Of a stretch of 64,000 bases of DNA, positions 5,486 to 62,839 are shown one piece after another (the stretch's first letter is position 1; every line of letters starts with the position of its first letter). A program made the translations under genes and the position numbers. Source of the stretch: Bacteroidota bacterium (GTDB taxonomy: Bacteria > Bacteroidota > Bacteroidia > Chitinophagales > Chitinophagaceae); contig CANJPH010000011.1 of assembly GCA_947476145.1 (NCBI GenBank), positions 2,663 through 66,662 of the forward strand. The letters run 5' to 3'. The notes beneath the pieces are model-generated. The model saw nothing but the letters and a program-made list of their open reading frames with translations, was not told the DNA's origin and made no database searches.

Positions 5486-6940
5486 ATGAAAAAAGCCTTA
5501 CTGTTAGCATTTCTTGCTAACTTATTTTTGCCTTCAATGGCACAAAAGGAAAGTAACCCATTAAAAAAGCATGAGGTTCAGTTACTATCCTTATTATTAG
5601 ATGATACGATAAACAATACCAACTTTACGCTAAACAACTCTTTTAATTTTGGTATTGGAAATGACTTTTTTACCAATAGCAATATAATAAAAAAAGGGAA
5701 AGATGTTTTTATACAACCCCTTGGTACAGGAAGGTTATATAAAGCCAACAAAGATAATGGGGTGGTTAAAATAGATAGAATTGACCTAACAAAGCACTCT
5801 GGTTCCAATTTCTACGCGCAAAATTTCTTAATTCATGATACCTTATATCAAATGGGAGGTGTGGGCTTTTGGCATATTAGAGGGATACTTACCTATTATA
5901 GTAATCAAACTAGACAATGGGAAATCATTCAAGCCAATAAAAATGTTCAAACCTACTTTGATGGGATTACAAATGCTGTTTTACATTATGATGAAAAAAG
6001 AAAGGACCCTAAGCTCTATATAAGTAACTCCTACTATTATCCAAATTATCCTACTTCTTTTGAAACTGCTTCCACTGATAGTTGTTACGTTTACGATTTT
6101 AATACAAGAGGCTGGAATACACTTGGGAAACTAAATCCTGAATTCATCAAGACTATTGGTGATAATCAGTCGCACGAAATGGAATTGCATATCAATAATT
6201 TATATATATTTCAGACACAGCTTAATTTTTATTGGGTAGATTTTGAAAAAAACAAACTTGGTGAATTTAATACCACCGAAAATGATCGCTTGAGAGACTT
6301 TTGGTTAAGCAATTACAATAATAATAAAAGTGGCTCTTCTTTTGGATTCGAGTTTAATCTTGGAGATGAATTGTATTTTCTAAAAGTGGATAACAACGAT
6401 TCTTTGATATGGGGAAAAACAACCTTAAACTTAAAAGAGCTCAATTTAAACAAGACAATACCTATTTATACTAATAAAGCGTCCTTTTTAGAAGCCATCA
6501 GTTCTTTTTACAGTCGTTATAAAACGGAAATTTATTTAAGCCTTTCCCTTTTACTCATCGCCATTGCATTAAGAGCTAATTTTTTCAGAAAGAAAAGAAT
6601 GCCTAAGGAACTTGTGGTGATTCTTTATCAGAACTTTTATAATTCAACCAGTATAGTGGAGAAAGAGCTTTTAGAGGTTTTATATAATAGTAGTTTAAAA
6701 GGAGAAGCAGTCTCTACCAAAACAATTAATAAAATAATTGGGGTTCAACAAAAGGATACGCTCACTCAAAATAAAAGCAGAAGTGACCATTTTATTAAAA
6801 TTAATCAGAAATTTAAAATGGCTACGCAAAGTGTAGAACCTTTAATTATAAAAAATAGAGATAAAGATGACAAGAGACAATACAATTATGACTTAAATAA
6901 ATTGTACATGCTTGAAATTGAAAAACTTTTAAAGGACTAG
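5486..6940 (+). CDS. Hypothetical membrane-anchored protein: signal peptide, Kelch-like periplasmic region, one TM helix, C-terminal winged-helix-like domain
   Basis: Signal peptide MKKALLLAFLANLFLPSMA; Kelch-like LYQMGGVGFW and CYVYDFNTRGWNTLG; TM IYLSLSLLLIAIAL then RKKR; basic C-terminus. TAGATTTG -7 element at 5462-5469. Confidence 0.6.
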   Translation: MKKALLLAFLANLFLPSMAQKESNPLKKHEVQLLSLLLDDTINNTNFTLNNSFNFGIGNDFFTNSNIIKKGKDVFIQPLGTGRLYKANKDNGVVKIDRIDLTKHSGSNFYAQNFLIHDTLYQMGGVGFWHIRGILTYYSNQTRQWEIIQANKNVQTYFDGITNAVLHYDEKRKDPKLYISNSYYYPNYPTSFETASTDSCYVYDFNTRGWNTLGKLNPEFIKTIGDNQSHEMELHINNLYIFQTQLNFYWVDFEKNKLGEFNTTENDRLRDFWLSNYNNNKSGSSFGFEFNLGDELYFLKVDNNDSLIWGKTTLNLKELNLNKTIPIYTNKASFLEAISSFYSRYKTEIYLSLSLLLIAIALRANFFRKKRMPKELVVILYQNFYNSTSIVEKELLEVLYNSSLKGEAVSTKTINKIIGVQQKDTLTQNKSRSDHFIKINQKFKMATQSVEPLIIKNRDKDDKRQYNYDLNKLYMLEIEKLLKD

Positions 6941-21792: not shown

Positions 21793-24396
21793 CTAGACTT
21801 CATTCCTAAAGACAATCACCCCGTCAAAAATGTCAATAAGTACTTTTTTAGCCTTGTCAATTTCACCACTTAGTATTTTCTTACTTAATTCATTTACCAC
21901 CATCTTTTGAATTAATCGTTTTAAAGGCCTTGCCCCAAATTGCATATCAAACCCTTGTTCTGATAAATATTCTACTAAGTAATCGCTAAACTCGATTTGC
22001 ATTCCATTTTCAGCTACCAATTGTTTTAAATGATTCAATTGGATTTTCACAATGGCACCCATTTGTTTTTGCAATAATGGAGAAAACATGATAATTTCAT
22101 CTACCCTGTTTAAAAACTCGGGGCGAATGGTTTGTTTTAATAAAGCCATCACTTCAGTTTTAGATTGCTCCACTTTAGACTGCAGATTTTTATCTGTAAC
22201 GCCTTCGAAGGTTTCTTGAATAATATGACTACCAATATTCGAAGTCATAATAATGATGGTGTTTTTAAAGTTCACCGTTCTTCCTTTATTATCCGTTAAA
22301 TGACCATCGTCTAATACTTGCAATAAAATATTCCAAACATCAGGATGCGCTTTTTCAATTTCATCTAACAATACCACACTATAGGGTTTGCGGCGCACTG
22401 CTTCTGTTAATTGTCCGCCCTCATCATACCCTACATAACCAGGAGGCGCACCCACTAATCTAGAAACAGAATGCTTTTCTTGGTATTCACTCATATCAAT
22501 GCGCGTCATCATAGAATCATCATCAAATAAATATTCAGCCAAGGCTTTCGCCAATTCTGTTTTACCCACCCCTGTTGTTCCTAAGAAAATAAAGGAGCCA
22601 ATAGGTTTTTTAGGATCCTGTAAACCAGCCCTGCTTCTTCGTATTGCATCCGATACGGCAGTAATGGCTTCCTCTTGGCCAATAACACGTTTATGCAATT
22701 CGTCTTCCAATTGCAATAATTTTTCTCTTTCAGATTGCATCATTTTGCTCACCGGAATACCTGTTGCTTTGGCTACATTTTCTGCAATGTCTTCCGCATC
22801 CACTTCTTCTTTCATTAATCTTTTACCATTGGTGCCCAATTCAATTAATTGAACTGTAAATTGCTCCAAGTTTGATTCCTGTTCTTTTACTTTACCATAT
22901 CTTATTTCTGCCACTTTCCCATAGTCCCCATTTCTTTCTGCTACTTCTGCTTCTTGTTTCAATTTTTCAATTTCAGACTTTGCTTTTTGCACTTTGTCAA
23001 CCATTTCTTTTTCTTCGGTCCACTTTGCTTTTAAGGTATCTTGCTGCACCGTTAAATTACTAATTTCAATATTCAAGGTCTTTAATTGCTCCGGATTATT
23101 CTCTCTTTTAATGGCTTCTCTTTCAATTTCCAATTGTCGTATTTGACGCATTAATGTATCTAATTCAGCGGGCATCGAATTCATTTCCAAGCGAAGCTTA
23201 GCGGCACTCTCGTCAATTAAATCAATGGCCTTGTCTGGTAAAAAACGATCGGTGATATACCTGCTTGACAATTCTACTGCAGCAATAATAGCTTCATCCT
23301 TAATACGCACATGATGATGTGTTTCATAGCGTTCTTTTAACCCTCTTAATATAGAGACTGCATCATCTTTAGTAGGTTCATCAATCATTACTTTTTGAAA
23401 ACGACGCTCTAATGCTTTATCTTTTTCAAAAAACTTTTGATATTCTGCTAAAGTGGTTGCTCCAATGGCCCTTAACTCACCCCTTGCCAATGCAGGTTTT
23501 AAAATATTAGCCGCATCCATGGCGCCCTCGCCTCCACCAGCACCTACCAAAGTATGTATCTCATCTATAAATAAAATTACTTCTCCGTCACTATCTGCCA
23601 CTTCTTTCACTACACCTTTTAAACGCTCTTCAAATTCACCCTTATATTTTGCGCCTGCAATTAATTGACCCATATCCAGGGCATAAATAATTTTACTCTT
23701 TAAATTATCGGGCACGTCTCCATTCACAATACGCATAGCCAATCCTTCGGCAATAGCGGTTTTACCCACACCCGGCTCGCCCACTAAAATGGGATTGTTT
23801 TTACTACGACGAGAAAGAATGTGTAGGGTCCTTCTAATTTCTTCGTCGCGACCAATTACTGGATCTAACTTTCCTTTGTTGGCTAGCTCATTTAAATTTT
23901 TTGCAAACTTTGATAAGGATTGAAACTGCGTTTCCTGTGTTGCAGAATTTACGGTTTCTCCTTTTCGTAATTCTTTAATAGCCGTGGTTAACCCTTTTTC
24001 TGTAAGTCCGGCATCTTTTAATATTTTACCAGCCACATCATTTACTTGTAATAAAGCAATCATCAAATGCTCAACGGTTACAAATTCATCTCCAAATATT
24101 TTAAGTGCTGCGTTGGACTTTAACATCACAGCATTTAAGTCTCTACTTACATTAGAAGCTGGCTCCCCCGATTGTTGCTTTGCTAAGGAGTGGATCGCAT
24201 CTTCTGTTTTTTGAAGGACCACACCTGGATTTACATTATTCTTTTTTAATAAATATTCGGTGGAGCTATCCTTGTCCAATAAAATGGCTTTTAACAAATG
24301 AGTCGTTTCAATGGATACATTACTATTATTATATGCCAACTGTTGTGCTGCCTGAATGGCTTCCTGTGCCTTAATAGTATATTGATTTAAATTCAT
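21793..24396 (-). CDS. clpB: ATP-dependent chaperone ClpB
   Basis: Two AAA+ modules ([16 protein letters not shown]), middle coiled coil, [13 protein letters not shown]. Start ATG 24396 (867 aa); the longer track ORF overlaps divergent queG. Confidence 0.96.
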
Positions 24397-24423
24397 AGTT
24401 TGTTTGTTTGTAGAAAGGTATGC

Positions 24424-24439
24424 GCAAAACAAGCGCCAA
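24424..24439 (-). promoter_or_regulatory. Sigma54 (RpoN)-type -24/-12 promoter upstream of clpB
   Basis: Sense strand TTGGCGC-TTGTT-TTGC matches TGGCAC-N5-TTGC; 27 nt before ATG. Confidence 0.6.
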
Positions 24440-24527
24440 TCTATGATATAAGTTATAATGTCATATAATTTATATGAAACCGGAATAAAAGTCAGTCCTA
24501 TCAAGGTTTTTCTGCTATTTTTACAGC

Positions 24528-25469
24528 GTGAACGAATTTTCAAATACGGTATTTATAAAGGAGCTTGCACAGCAAATGGGCTTCGATTATTGTGGCATTG
24601 CTAAGGCCAAAGAATTAACCGAGGATGCAAGACGACTTGAGTCCTGGATTAAAAAAGGATATCATGGAGAGATGTCCTATATGGAAAATAATTTTGAGTT
24701 GAGAACCGATCCCAGAAAATTAGTGCCAGGTGCAAAGTCTGTAATTACTTTTTTAAAAAATTACTACCCCTCACAAACGGCTTTGGATGAAGGACTAGCA
24801 CAAGATGCAAAAATTGCAAAGTATGCTTATGGTGAAGACTACCACGAAGTAATCCGTCAGCAATTATTTGAATGCTTGGATACCATGCGTGCTATGATTG
24901 GCCCTATTGAAGGAAGAGGATTTGTAGATTCGGCTCCCGTATTAGAACGATCTTGGGCACAATTATCGGGCGCTGGATGGATTGGTAAAAATGGAAATTT
25001 AATTAGGAATAAATCAGGTTCCTTCTTTTTTATTGCCACCCTTATTATAGACTTGGAGTTGGTTTATGATGACCCTTCTCCTAAAGATTACTGTGGGACC
25101 TGCACCAAATGCATTGATGCCTGCCCCACACAGGCAATCCTCCCTAATAAAAATATTGAAGCCAATCATTGTATTAGTTACTTTACCATTGAATTGAAAA
25201 AGGAAACCATTGAAACAGAAAGGCCATATAAGGACTGGGCTTTTGGATGTGATATATGCCAGGATGTTTGTCCTTGGAATAGTTTTAGTCAAGCACATCA
25301 TGAAAAAAAATTCAAACCGCTAAATGGTTTATTACAAATGCAAGCTGAAGATTGGTTGCAAATAGAAGAAACTACTTTTAAGGCAAGATTTAAAAAATCA
25401 CCCTTACTAAGATCAAAACTAAAAGGAATTCAAAGGAATATTCAATTTTTAAAGGAGCAGGAAAAGTAA
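24528..25469 (+). CDS. queG: tRNA epoxyqueuosine(34) reductase
   Basis: YAYGEDYH, FVDSAPVLER, CGTCTKCIDACPT, FGCDICQDVCPWN; GTG start. Confidence 0.95.
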   Translation: MNEFSNTVFIKELAQQMGFDYCGIAKAKELTEDARRLESWIKKGYHGEMSYMENNFELRTDPRKLVPGAKSVITFLKNYYPSQTALDEGLAQDAKIAKYAYGEDYHEVIRQQLFECLDTMRAMIGPIEGRGFVDSAPVLERSWAQLSGAGWIGKNGNLIRNKSGSFFFIATLIIDLELVYDDPSPKDYCGTCTKCIDACPTQAILPNKNIEANHCISYFTIELKKETIETERPYKDWAFGCDICQDVCPWNSFSQAHHEKKFKPLNGLLQMQAEDWLQIEETTFKARFKKSPLLRSKLKGIQRNIQFLKEQEK

Positions 25470-48569: not shown

Positions 48570-49223
48570 TTAGTAGGTAACTGAAACCTTAAAGATCTTA
48601 TTTGAAATTCCTAAGATCGTTGCTGCTGCATCGCTTAAGCGGTATTGAATGGCACCACCCACGTCGGGTAAACTATTGATTACTTTTGCACAAATACTTT
48701 TTAACTCAGGCGTTGTGATTCTTACAATCGTACCAATTGGCATTTGATTGGTAAGGATATAAAACTTGCCATCATCCCAGCCACTTAAACTTTTAAAAAC
48801 AGATGCAGTTCCTTCAAGTGTTTGAATGGTAGTAGATTTAGACTGACTAGAAAACATAGTAGCATAATACCCTTCTTTGTTATTATTATCATTCAGCAAT
48901 GAAGTTTTGCGAATACTATCTGCAACTCTTGTTTTAATTTGATTATCGGAAATCATTTGAAGAGAAGCTGTTTTACTATCACTCTCTTGTTTTAACTGAG
49001 CTGAATCTTTTACAATTCTAGTAGTGGATTTCCTCTTTTTTGACTTTGAGCCACGTTTTGATTTACTCTTTTTGCTCTTTTTAGCAGAAACGGCGGACTT
49101 AGCCTTTGCTTTCTTAGACTTAGTCACGGTTTGGTAGGTTGCATAATTCACAGCAGCACTACTATTTGAACTATTCAATAGACCAAGGCACACGACGAAT
49201 ATGAGTAAATATTTGCTAAACAT
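48570..49223 (-). CDS. Exported hypothetical protein with Lys/Ser-rich segment and RlpA-like double-psi beta-barrel C-terminus
   Basis: Signal peptide; KSKKAKAK...KSKKRK tract; GTIVRIT...AKV...RLSDAAAxxLG pattern. Confidence 0.55.
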   Translation of the reverse strand: MFSKYLLIFVVCLGLLNSSNSSAAVNYATYQTVTKSKKAKAKSAVSAKKSKKSKSKRGSKSKKRKSTTRIVKDSAQLKQESDSKTASLQMISDNQIKTRVADSIRKTSLLNDNNNKEGYYATMFSSQSKSTTIQTLEGTASVFKSLSGWDDGKFYILTNQMPIGTIVRITTPELKSICAKVINSLPDVGGAIQYRLSDAAATILGISNKIFKVSVTY

Positions 49224-60037: not shown

Positions 60038-61912
60038 TTATTTTAATAAGTCAACACTTCGATTAATAAAATTAGTTAGCTCAGCGCCGGTTAATAAGCC
60101 CTGTGACAATAAAGCTAAGTCGGCTAAATTACGCGCCTGCTTTTGTTGCTTATCCGTATCCGTCTCTTTTAATAGTGCTTGATAAATAGGATGGTTCCCG
60201 TTAATGGTCAAATATACCTCATCTGGCATTTGCGCATAAAAAGCAGTCATTCCGCCGCCACCCATGCTAGCCATGTCCTTCATACGACGCATAAATTCGG
60301 GGCGCGTTGCAATCACTGGCGCTGCTTCGGCACTTAATCCTTTAACCTCAACGGTTAAAGTAATATCAGGTACTTGGAACTCAAATAAATTTTTTGCTTG
60401 TTCCACTTCCTCTTTACTTAATACAGAATCTACGTTTTCTTGTTTGTCAATTAAATTGTCCACTACATCCGCGTCTACACGCACAAATTGAACACCCTCC
60501 CATTTCATTTCAACATTATTAATGAATGCAGCATCCACCATGGTTTCTAATTTCACTACTTTATACCCCTTACCCACCGCAGCTTGAATGAACGCATCCT
60601 GTTGAACTGGATTCGTAGTATATAATAAAACTTGCTTGCCGTCTTTATTTTTTTGAGTCGCCTCAGTCGTAGTTTTATACTCGTCTAAAGTATAGAACTT
60701 GCCTTTTTCTGCAGCGTCTTCCAAAATCAAAAACTTATTCCCTTTTTCTAAAAATTTATCATCGGTAATCATACCATACTTTACAAACAATCCTAAGCTT
60801 TCCCATTTGTCTTCAAATGACTTACGATCGCTGTTAAATATTTCCTCTAATTTATCTGCTACCTTTTTAGTGATATGTGCATTAATCTTTTTTACATTGG
60901 GGTCGCCTTGCAAATAGCTACGACTCACGTTTAAAGGAATATCTGGACTATCAATAACACCATGCAATAACATTAAAAACTCAGGTACAATATCCTTTAC
61001 TTCATCCGTTACAAATACTTGATTGCAATACAATTGAATCTTGTCTTTTTGTATCTCAAAGCTCTGTTTGATTTTAGGGAAATATAAAATACCTGTTAAA
61101 TTAAATGGATAGTCCACATTTAAATGAATCCAAAACAATGGAGTTTCTCCAAAAGGATATAATTCCTTGTAGAAATTTTCATAATCCTCCTTGGTCAATT
61201 CCGAAGGTTTACGCACCCACAAAGGGTTGGTATTATTAATGGGCTTAGCAACTTCTTCTGCAATTTCTGTATCGCCTTCGGTCTTAGTCTCGGGCTTTAT
61301 TGCATTGGCGTCGGTAAAATAAATGCCAACCGGTAAGAACTTACAAAAACGTTCTAAAATTCCTTTAACACGATGTGCATCTAAAAACTCGGCACTCTCC
61401 TCGTTAATATGCAATACAATTTTTGTACCTCTATTACTATAATCTACTTCGTATAATTCATATTCGGTGCTGCCGTCACAACTCCAAAAAACACCTGGCG
61501 CTCCCGTATGGCTTTTTGAATAAATATCTACTTTACTACTCACCATAAATGAGCTATAAAATCCTAATCCAAAATGTCCAATAATACTTGCGTCCTTGTA
61601 TTTGGTTACAAATTCTTCGGCGCCACTAAAGGCCACTTGATTAATATATTTGTCCACTTCTTCGCCAGACATCCCCACACCGTTATCAATAATAGAGATT
61701 GTTTTTTCTTTGGCATCTAAAACCACTTCTACTTTCAATGCACCTAAATCTCCTTTGGCTTCTCCCTTACCATGTAAGGTTTTAAGTTTCTGAGCAGCAT
61801 CCACCGCATTACTCACTAACTCACGTAAAAAGATTTCGTGATCACTGTAAAGGAACTTCTTAATAATCGGAAAAATATTCTCCGTTTGAACGCGTATTTG
61901 ACCTTTTTGCAT
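60038..61912 (-). CDS. htpG: Molecular chaperone HtpG (Hsp90)
   Basis: EIFLRELVSNA, DNGVGM, IGHFGLGFYS, LNVSRSYLQ. Confidence 0.96.
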   Translation of the reverse strand: MQKGQIRVQTENIFPIIKKFLYSDHEIFLRELVSNAVDAAQKLKTLHGKGEAKGDLGALKVEVVLDAKEKTISIIDNGVGMSGEEVDKYINQVAFSGAEEFVTKYKDASIIGHFGLGFYSSFMVSSKVDIYSKSHTGAPGVFWSCDGSTEYELYEVDYSNRGTKIVLHINEESAEFLDAHRVKGILERFCKFLPVGIYFTDANAIKPETKTEGDTEIAEEVAKPINNTNPLWVRKPSELTKEDYENFYKELYPFGETPLFWIHLNVDYPFNLTGILYFPKIKQSFEIQKDKIQLYCNQVFVTDEVKDIVPEFLMLLHGVIDSPDIPLNVSRSYLQGDPNVKKINAHITKKVADKLEEIFNSDRKSFEDKWESLGLFVKYGMITDDKFLEKGNKFLILEDAAEKGKFYTLDEYKTTTEATQKNKDGKQVLLYTTNPVQQDAFIQAAVGKGYKVVKLETMVDAAFINNVEMKWEGVQFVRVDADVVDNLIDKQENVDSVLSKEEVEQAKNLFEFQVPDITLTVEVKGLSAEAAPVIATRPEFMRRMKDMASMGGGGMTAFYAQMPDEVYLTINGNHPIYQALLKETDTDKQQKQARNLADLALLSQGLLTGAELTNFINRSVDLLK

Positions 61913-61937
61913 AATTATTCTATTTGATACTAATATA

Positions 61938-61953
61938 GCAATAAGGGTACCAA
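61938..61953 (-). promoter_or_regulatory. Sigma54 (RpoN)-type -24/-12 promoter upstream of htpG
   Basis: Sense strand TTGGTAC-CCTTA-TTGC; 25 nt before ATG. Confidence 0.6.
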
Positions 61954-61978
61954 AGCCCCATTACTGACAAGCTGACAA

Positions 61979-62839
61979 CTAAATGGGGGCCTTCGGGGCC
62001 GTTTGAGGTAAATTTTGCAGCCAGGCAGCACCTGTACACCGCTTTGCCGTTAACAAAATGTCATTTGTGTCTCTTAAAATAATTTGCTTTTCGTTGTTAT
62101 ATACCGAGTAAATGCCAATCACAATTCCATTTCCAGCGGGGGTTTTGACACCTGCAAAATCGGCATACCCACTGGTCCTTAAATAAATAGTGCCTCCAGT
62201 ACAAAATTTCAAGCTTCTACTTAAGCCCAATTTGTTTTTCTTATCTGCATAGGTTTGACCTGTATCCGCTGCGCTAAATTCTACTGCATTAAGTTGAATG
62301 AGTCTCCCCTGCAAAGTATCAGACAAGTTTTTAAAACCAACCATCAATGGATAAATGGGCTCGTTGTCTGCTATTACTTGTATATGTTTTAAAAACATGG
62401 GTGCAGGAATACCCGATGTGACTAAAGCGCCACTGCTAGAATCTACCGAGGCAACCAACTGAACCATATGTCTATAATCTGTTAAAAAAAGAGATTGCGT
62501 TTTAATTTTAATTAAAGTTCCAATTGGATAGGTTTGGTATAGAGCCTGGCCGTCCAAAAGCACGACAATGCCTCCTGTTTTATCCTGCACATAAATGCAC
62601 TTATATACATTATCATGCTCATCGTTGGCCACGACGGTTCCTTGAATATATATAGGCTGCCCAATATATTCGGCCATTCCTACTATATGCATTTTTCGAA
62701 GGCTTTTAATGCTGGTAATAGAGTCACTAAAATTATTTTGGGTGGCTGCATTTGCTGATTTTTTGAAACAAGCTGGCGTTAATAATAAATACAAGCACAC
62801 TAAGGACATCACACCAAATAAACATAATTTGTTTTTCAT
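61979..62839 (-). CDS. DUF5689-like OB-fold lipoprotein
   Basis: Lipobox-like TPAC; GTVVAND..NVYKxIYVQDxTGG, GRLIQLNAVEF, LRTSGYADFA. Confidence 0.7.
   Translation of the reverse strand: MKNKLCLFGVMSLVCLYLLLTPACFKKSANAATQNNFSDSITSIKSLRKMHIVGMAEYIGQPIYIQGTVVANDEHDNVYKCIYVQDKTGGIVVLLDGQALYQTYPIGTLIKIKTQSLFLTDYRHMVQLVASVDSSSGALVTSGIPAPMFLKHIQVIADNEPIYPLMVGFKNLSDTLQGRLIQLNAVEFSAADTGQTYADKKNKLGLSRSLKFCTGGTIYLRTSGYADFAGVKTPAGNGIVIGIYSVYNNEKQIILRDTNDILLTAKRCTGAAWLQNLPQTAPKAPI

Follow-up and report, generated by a model that had tools for sequence, protein, structure and literature searches.

Introduction

The closest described systems are found within Bacteroidota. Guerin et al. 2021 (PMC9723704) mapped transcription start sites (TSSs) in Flavobacterium psychrophilum and attributed the -24/-12 motif SM4 to sigma-54. 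SM4 occurs at groES-EL, lon, dnaK, grpE-dnaJ, htpG, skp and clpB of this bacterium; its chaperone promoters were assigned to the sigma-54 motif with a probability of at least 0.999, and different activators probably serve different sigma-54 clusters, according to the same authors (PMC9723704). A survey published in PLoS One in 2025 (PMC12316311) reported that the chaperone, HSP90, Clp and Lon COGs are enriched for sigma-54 promoters in Bacteroidota and Planctomycetota; for grpE and groES it cites Sabree 2009. The link between sigma-54 and chaperone genes in Bacteroidota is already published; so far, it consists of motif searches and one TSS map, and for this phylum no evidence on chaperone genes from an rpoN mutant emerged in the literature searched. 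Published work also reports co-expression of these genes. The rpoN gene is widespread in Bacteroidota according to the literature, and flavobacterial endosymbionts keep it in genomes of ~300 kb, which fits an essential role of sigma-54; Blattabacterium, Uzinura and Walczuchella are reduced endosymbionts that have it.

The phylum includes gut Bacteroides, the oral pathogen Porphyromonas gingivalis, fish-pathogenic flavobacteria and abundant freshwater and soil lineages, and it is without the textbook RpoH, CIRCE and CtsR signatures. In other bacteria, sigma-54 serves stress genes such as lonD of Myxococcus, with HsfA/HsfB, and ibpB and pspA of Escherichia coli, with PspF. Enhancer-binding proteins normally bind 80-150 bp upstream; classical sigma-54 enhancers include those of NtrC at glnAp2 and the three NorR sites at norV, and LuxO, of the NtrC family, recognises a 13-bp palindrome of the 5-3-5 style, TTGCA-N3-TGCAA. 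In Borrelia, BosR, a non-AAA+ factor, is described as binding beside the -24/-12 core of the rpoS sigma-54 promoter (PMC3037356). Myxococcus lonD, E. coli ibpB and pspA, and Borrelia rpoS are single genes or operons, whereas sigma-54 of Bacteroidota appears to drive the core chaperone set of the phylum.

The promoters described here share with those of F. psychrophilum and of the PLoS One survey the set of genes (clpB, htpG, groES-EL, dnaK, grpE-dnaJ, lon) and the -24/-12 core; they differ from those of F. psychrophilum in that the host belongs to another order, Chitinophagales.

The clpB and htpG promoters of a Chitinophagaceae genome

The window, that is, the whole stretch of 64,000 nucleotides that was analysed, carries two chaperone genes, clpB and htpG, with the following features.

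21793..24396, minus strand: clpB; 867 aa; Pfam AAA_2, AAA_lid_9, ClpB_D2-small and Clp_N
24424..24439, minus strand: sigma-54-type core of clpB, TTGGCGC-N5-TTGC; GG of the -24 element at 24437-24436, G of the -12 element at 24425
24451..24463, minus strand: clpB dyad (box A), TGACATTATAACT; its left half is the TGACA box seen earlier
60038..61912, minus strand: htpG; 624 aa; Pfam HSP90 and HATPase_c
61938..61953, minus strand: sigma-54-type core of htpG, TTGGTAC-N5-TTGC; G of the -12 element at 61939
61964..61977, minus strand: htpG dyad, TGTCAGCTTGTCAG; a perfect TGnCA-N3-TGnCA plus G, 25 nt before TGG

An earlier note on this DNA had read one common layout upstream of both genes, TGWCA-N19-TTGGYRC-N5-TTGC followed by 25-27 nt to the ATG, and this layout proved exact to the base. 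On the sense strand, clpB has TGACA (24463-24459)-N19-TTGGCGC (24439-24433)-N5-TTGC (24427-24424)-27 nt-ATG (24396-24394), and htpG has TGTCA (61977-61973)-N19-TTGGTAC (61953-61947)-N5-TTGC (61941-61938)-25 nt-ATG (61912-61910). Both thus contain the sigma-54 -24/-12 geometry GG-N10-G, in the form TGGCGC-N5-TTGC at clpB and TGGTAC-N5-TTGC at htpG. The note had also remarked that both genes are devoid of a TAnnTTTG -7 element; none is indeed present within 120 nt upstream of either, and 18 of the 57 ORFs of the window have one. At clpB, the right half of box A is degenerate, with 2 mismatches to TGnCA-N3-TGnCA, and the dyad starts 25 nt before TGG; the consensus of the orthologues is tatatGaCAtaaTtnC, at the same distance from the core. 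Upstream of htpG, a DUF5689 gene (61979..62839) ends with the stop codon TAG at 61981-61979, the htpG dyad begins 1 nt beyond it, and the entire htpG control region amounts to 66 nt.

Elements of other heat-shock systems were sought in the window. CIRCE had no match at up to 3 mismatches, a sigma-32-type promoter had no match, and the CtsR box was not found near clpB or htpG; two CtsR-like matches are present in the window, both far away and fewer than expected by chance. These scans agree with the earlier suggestion that clpB and htpG are controlled by a route other than RpoH, HrcA/CIRCE or CtsR. Furthermore, the clpB intergenic region contains no sigma-70-like site, and a reading of the two promoters as sigma-A/sigma-70 promoters was rejected on account of misfitting spacings and the missing -7 box. 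The window holds no Rfam element, and an RNA thermometer was discarded as an explanation, the predicted leaders (13-15 nt) being too short. HrcA/CIRCE, the CtsR box and HspR/HAIR resemble the dyad in that each is one conserved repeat element common to the chaperone genes of a phylum. However, these elements serve as operators for repressors and overlap promoters of the sigma-A type, a kind of promoter unlike that of clpB and htpG; they have no sequence relation to the dyad, and neither CIRCE nor the CtsR box is present at clpB and htpG.

Within the window, TGG-N8-TTGC occurs 16 times against 12.7 expected. Two occurrences of the full composite of dyad and core were counted at up to 2 mismatches, with 0.71 expected, and both are the chaperone promoters. 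The remaining matches to TGGYRC-N5-TTGC, at 352 and 12058 (minus strand), lie within a miaA-like gene and a lipoprotein gene and were counted as chance. By themselves, the window statistics are weak and not significant, and it is the orthologues that carry the case against chance. As a rough negative control, the composite pattern was scanned against IMG/VR viral contigs and gave 94 matches, about the rough chance expectation; the matches were of diverse G+C content, none of them preceded a recognisable chaperone gene, and most were without a plausible downstream gene start.

A 13-bp dyad is conserved and locked in position at htpG and clpB

The comparison drew on species-representative genomes for clpB and on metagenomes for htpG, with 80 loci retrieved for each gene, of which 77 and 74, respectively, entered the counts. 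The background was given by 100 dinucleotide shuffles, and a dyad was taken to be in register if it started 24-26 nt before TGG. A perfect TGnCA-N3-TGnCA in register was present at 55 of the 74 htpG loci and was never found in the shuffles. Dyad and core together, in register and at up to 2 mismatches, were found at 64/74 htpG loci (0.21 in shuffles) and at 42/77 clpB loci (0.25 in shuffles). The histogram of dyad-to-TGG spacings has a sharp peak at 25 (25 +/-1 nt), which places the dyad centre near -45. Upstream of htpG, the consensus reads tTGnCAnccTGtCAg, N10-12 and then tTGGcAtttt.TTTG, and many dyad copies are perfect palindromes, for instance TGCCAAGCTGGCA and TGACATCCTGTCA.

The loci with the dyad span Chitinophagales, Flavobacterium, Tannerella and other Bacteroidales, and Sphingobacteriales. 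In the orthologue consensus, the sequence flanking dyad and core is not conserved; the conservation of the dyad is thus not a matter of simple relatedness. The TGWCA box that the earlier note had placed at a fixed position is therefore real and position-locked in the orthologues, but instead of a 5-mer it forms the left half of a larger, 13-bp dyad. The note had named absence of the motif from other chaperone promoters and from orthologues as grounds for abandoning its proposal; we found it at htpG, clpB, groES, dnaK and hsp20. Taken together, the dyad is conserved across the phylum and is specific to the chaperone regulon, and the instance in the window is an ordinary member of this system.

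In the text and supplements of PMC9723704 and PMC12316311, we found no mention of the dyad, of its fixed spacing or of a cognate activator, nor was the dyad described elsewhere in the literature searched. A spacing-locked dyad beside the sigma-54 chaperone promoters thus appears to be undescribed in that literature.

Dyads at other chaperone genes lie on the same face of the DNA

With GroEL, DnaK and HtpG of P. gingivalis as queries, 11 further loci were retrieved. At groES, three Bacteroidales have the dyad 25-26 nt before TGG; the distance is 57 nt in P. gingivalis and 78 nt in Macellibacteroides/Parabacteroides. At dnaK, the dyad was found at 45, 48, 57 and 57 nt in four Bacteroidales. P. 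gingivalis htpG carries CGCCAGATTGTCAG 26 nt before TGGCACCGGATTTGT. A Flavobacterium hsp20 gene located within a clpB locus is preceded by TGGTACAAAATTTGT, with TGACATTTTTTCAG 34 nt upstream and another copy beyond. On one Bacteroidales contig (L259, 3334 onward), ftsH directly follows groEL, and no composite motif is obvious by eye in the intergenic region.

At groES, dnaK and hsp20 of Bacteroidales and Flavobacterium, the dyad thus sometimes lies further upstream by 1-7 helical turns while remaining on the same face, the offsets at dnaK and some groES genes being 2-5 turns, in phase. Over all promoters, there were 77 distinct combinations of gene, site and distance, 49 of them at 24-26 nt and 28 distal, the distal copies lying 34-99 nt before TGG. 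The 28 distal dyads are in phase with position 25 (Rayleigh p ~0.002 for a period of 10.5 bp and 3e-5 for 11 bp), a test that is supportive rather than exact, given that some of the far one-mismatch sites are surely noise. The unusually close site proposed earlier is accordingly usual at htpG and clpB, with its centre near -45, but not obligatory, dnaK and some groES genes having it further upstream.

The sigma-54-type core and the predicted transcription starts

The spacing GG-N10-G is invariant across the orthologues, and TGG-N8-TTG is kept in 69 of the 77 clpB upstream regions. At htpG, the core consensus tTGGcAtttt.TTTG is followed by ~25 nt to the ATG. The -12 element of the clpB and htpG loci is TTTG followed by A, C or T, with C in only ~25%. 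Thus, the exact TTGC of the window is a local accident, the conserved core being the looser TGG-N8-TTG. Since only about a quarter of these sigma-54-type promoters of Bacteroidota have the canonical -12 C, many would escape scanners trained on Proteobacteria.

The supplementary table of Guerin et al. (PMC9723704) gives the sequence from -50 to +10 for each TSS. In this table, F. psychrophilum clpB reads ACATtttgtccttttatttttaTTGGAATAACAATTGACGAT, then 10 nt, then the TSS, with GG at -26/-25 and the G of TTG at -14; the mapped TSSs of clpB and groES lie 13-14 nt past the G of the -12 element. The dyad of this clpB promoter, (TG)ACATTTTGTCC, has the register seen in the window, with its centre near -46, and groS has TGTCAG-N11-TGG, again a dyad in register. 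No in-register dyad was found at the F. psychrophilum sigma-54 promoters of skp, lon and two new transcribed segments. In htpG orthologues, a conserved 'Aaa' stands 14 nt after TTTG. On these grounds, the following starts are predicted for the window.

24409..24413, minus strand: predicted clpB transcription start, ~24411 (A), transferred from the mapped TSS of F. psychrophilum clpB
61923..61927, minus strand: predicted htpG transcription start, ~61925 (A within cAAA), from the F. psychrophilum TSS geometry and the conserved 'Aaa'

By analogy with these mapped starts, the 5' UTR would measure ~15 nt at clpB and ~13 nt at htpG. Motif and analogy likewise suggest that clpB and htpG of the source organism depend on sigma-54. 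The earlier proposal of a heat-shock regulon under sigma-54 agrees with the -24/-12 geometry, the lack of a -7 box and the F. psychrophilum TSSs, although it is not new, being already contained in PMC9723704 and PMC12316311.

Additional sites upstream of clpB and a lost divergent gene

Two further sites are present between box A and queG.

24481..24495, minus strand: second upstream site (UAS2-like), CTGACTTTTATTCCG; a weak match, 31 bp upstream of the box A 15-mer
24512..24526, minus strand: third upstream site (UAS1), CTGTAAAAATAGCAG; a perfect CTG-N9-CAG, 62 bp upstream of box A

The outer end of UAS1 is 1 nt from the GTG start of queG at 24528. About half of the Chitinophagaceae loci have, beside clpB, a divergent gene for a secreted, serine-hydrolase-like protein of ~350 aa, the ATG of which is the reverse complement of the CAT inside TGACAT of the clpB box. 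The CTG-N9-CAG elements at 31 and 62 bp fall in the unusually conserved signal-peptide codons of this gene (FLLFLQ and CLKFS; loci L004-L057). The conservation of the clpB box in Chitinophagaceae is thus partly confounded by the divergent ATG inside it. In the window, the hydrolase gene is gone; between clpB and queG there is a 48-codon ORF (MSYNLYETGIKVSPIKVFLLFLQRE...) at 24458-24604 on the plus strand, which is the relic 5' end of the divergent hydrolase gene, and the ancestral order was queG - hydrolase <-> clpB.

Our first reading of the CTG-N9-CAG elements as classical enhancers is undercut by their overlap with the signal-peptide codons. However, UAS1, at 5 or more of its 6 positions, is kept in 11/11 Chitinophagales loci that lack the hydrolase gene, against a background of 2.3%. 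Because UAS1 outlives the overlapping gene, the CTG-N9-CAG elements are probably sites at the DNA level, to which we assign a role only provisionally. Multiple phased sites occur at clpB, in 31-bp steps in Chitinophagaceae and as three copies in Flavobacterium. In the latter (L074, L076, L078 and L080), the three are direct copies of GTCAnTTTGTCGT with spacings of ~21 and 32 bp, and the proximal copy stands in the standard register before TGGAAyN5TTGA.

A candidate enhancer next to the polymerase

The dyad probably binds the regulator of the heat-shock genes. Its most likely role is that of an enhancer for the activator ATPase of the regulon, unusually close to the polymerase, the protein presumably being of the AAA+ type. 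We would give about even chances to the full reading, in which the clpB and htpG promoters are two of the Bacteroidota heat-shock (protein-quality-control) regulon, each with a sigma-54-type core, a leader of ~13-15 nt and a dyad TGnCA-N3-TGnCA(G) bound by a regulator, most likely an AAA+ enhancer-binding protein. RNA polymerase with sigma-54 would then sit on the core as a closed complex, and a dimeric regulator on the dyad, centred near -45 beside the polymerase footprint, would bring about ATP-dependent opening under protein-folding stress, which we take to be the signal. The dyad itself would most likely be contacted through the DNA-binding domain of the enhancer-binding protein, an AAA+ ATPase expected to form a hexamer.

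With the site so close, the regulator would have to stand on one face of the helix, which would account for the locked spacing at htpG and clpB and for the whole-turn offsets of the distal copies. Together with the phased clpB sites, locked spacing and same-face distal copies fit a protein that touches the sigma-54 polymerase from one face; most simply, this would be the AAA+ activator of the regulon. The dyad shares with the enhancers of NtrC, NorR and LuxO the character of a short, two-fold symmetric site for an HTH dimer, often multiple, with dependence on the face of the helix when close, and it has the enhancer feature of a symmetric dimer-type site specific to one regulon. Those enhancers, however, lie ~80-150 bp upstream, often with IHF, whereas the dyad lies near -45 and is mostly single at htpG. 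The main dyad, with its centre near -45 to within 1 bp, is thus not placed as a typical enhancer, ~80-150 bp upstream and acting by looping, and few precedents exist, to our knowledge, for binding centred there. A further point against the hexameric activator is that hexamers usually assemble on several sites, whereas a single good dyad is the rule among htpG promoters. Six-frame translations of the window and of the 160 clpB and htpG loci contained no RpoN box and no GAFTGA motif, and a Pfam scan of 20 ORFs of the window gave no regulator gene. F. psychrophilum has three proteins of the AAA+ family PF00158.

A broader proposal, which we make tentatively and with the odds somewhat against it, is that the core chaperone regulon of Bacteroidota may be run by sigma-54 and one dedicated AAA+ activator on a polymerase-abutting dyad. 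Activation would be nearly loop-free, the circuit would be distinct from those of RpoH, HrcA, CtsR and HspR, and free chaperones may restrain the activator.

Other explanations for the dyad

The explanation that competes best, although we consider it unlikely, sees in the dyad an operator for a repressor or anti-activator that works by the logic of HrcA, CtsR or HspR, possibly a response regulator like RprY. Bound beside the sigma-54 closed complex, this protein would hold off the activator until stress displaces it, the activator itself acting from elsewhere or from solution. Outside Proteobacteria, heat-shock genes are as a rule under negative control, and this general rule speaks for such an operator, as does the TGTCA half-site, which resembles the half-sites of Pho boxes to which OmpR/PhoB-type regulators bind. 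More specifically, RprY of P. gingivalis bound the groES, dnaK and clpB probes in EMSA, left the htpG probe unbound and behaves as a repressor of chaperone genes, its motif not having been defined (Krishnan and Duncan 2013, PMC3646045). In the literature searched, no other protein is shown to bind Bacteroidota chaperone promoters directly. All four promoters of the P. gingivalis type that we read carry the dyad. The htpG probe is given as 203 bp long, and its reverse primer matches locus L265; with that length, it should include the in-register dyad CGCCAGATTGTCAG. RprY thus binds the chaperone promoters of groES, dnaK and clpB, yet as a repressor, and the htpG probe with the expected in-register dyad remained unbound; its binding therefore does not track the dyad, and RprY is weakened as a candidate for the dyad binder. 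Moreover, the helical phase of the distal copies fits contact with the polymerase better than steric blocking, and the dyad never overlaps the -24/-12 core.

Somewhat less probable still is a dyad occupied by an architectural or co-activating protein (for example, a bender of the IHF/HU type or a BosR-like factor) that positions a remote or non-DNA-binding enhancer-binding protein. The usual place of IHF at sigma-54 promoters is at -40 to -60, TATGACATAATTG bears a loose likeness to WATCAANNNNTTR, and the role of the actual enhancer could fall to the further conserved clpB sites at -76 and -107. In addition, a gene of the HU-HIG / bacterial DNA-binding family lies downstream of P. gingivalis dnaK (L261, 3954-4424, minus strand), an anecdotal point that may be a coincidence. 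However, the short length and two-fold symmetry of the dyad set it apart from IHF sites, nothing conserved stands further upstream at most htpG promoters, and the htpG dyad of the window abuts the stop codon of the upstream gene.

We regard as improbable a reading apart from sigma-54, in which TGG-N8-TTG and the dyad would be recognised by another sigma factor (an ECF factor or a variant of sigma-A) or by sigma-A helped by an activator. The C of the -12 element is poorly conserved, TTTG is also the 3' end of the sigma-A -7 box of Bacteroidota, and genetic proof of sigma-54 dependence is absent from the literature searched. Nevertheless, GG-N10-G is invariant, the F. psychrophilum TSS fits a -24/-12 promoter at the motif probability of at least 0.999 given above, TAnnTTTG is missing, the distances between dyad and core misfit a -35/-10 spacing, and even the tiny endosymbiont genomes keep rpoN.

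Finally, a shared layout arising by chance, with conservation due to overlapping coding sequence or recent common ancestry, could appeal to the non-significance of the window by itself, to the divergent hydrolase start codon inside the Chitinophagaceae clpB box and to the CTG-N9-CAG elements in signal-peptide codons, but it is for practical purposes refuted by the orthologue counts, by shuffles that yield ~0, by unconserved flanks, by dyads at htpG, groES, dnaK and hsp20 where no gene overlaps, and by the retention of the dyad at clpB in lineages that lack the hydrolase gene.

Under the preferred reading of a regulator bound next to the sigma-54 polymerase, changes of the dyad spacing could show how a sigma-54 activator works from -45. 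The sharply defined, phylum-wide dyad makes heat-shock regulation directly testable and can be used as bait for the regulator. With the composite motif, the extent of the regulon could be determined for any genome or MAG of Bacteroidota, and annotators gain a simple marker for stress-inducible promoters in a phylum that standard promoter models do not serve.

Source organism and occurrence

The closest relatives of the window's ClpB are those of Chitinophagales, with 89% identity in a 'Bacteroidetes bacterium' MAG and 86% in Sediminibacterium MAGs; an exact-protein look-up returned no identical protein on record. Two ORFs of the window, 5486-6940 (plus strand, 484 aa) and 48570-49223 (minus strand, 217 aa), had no Pfam match at E<=0.001. 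The sequence was found in freshwater and lake metagenomes and represents a lineage without an isolate. Its clpB gene was also detected in eight lake metatranscriptome runs, the contigs of which, from a strain ~2-3% divergent, end at 24391, inside the ORF.
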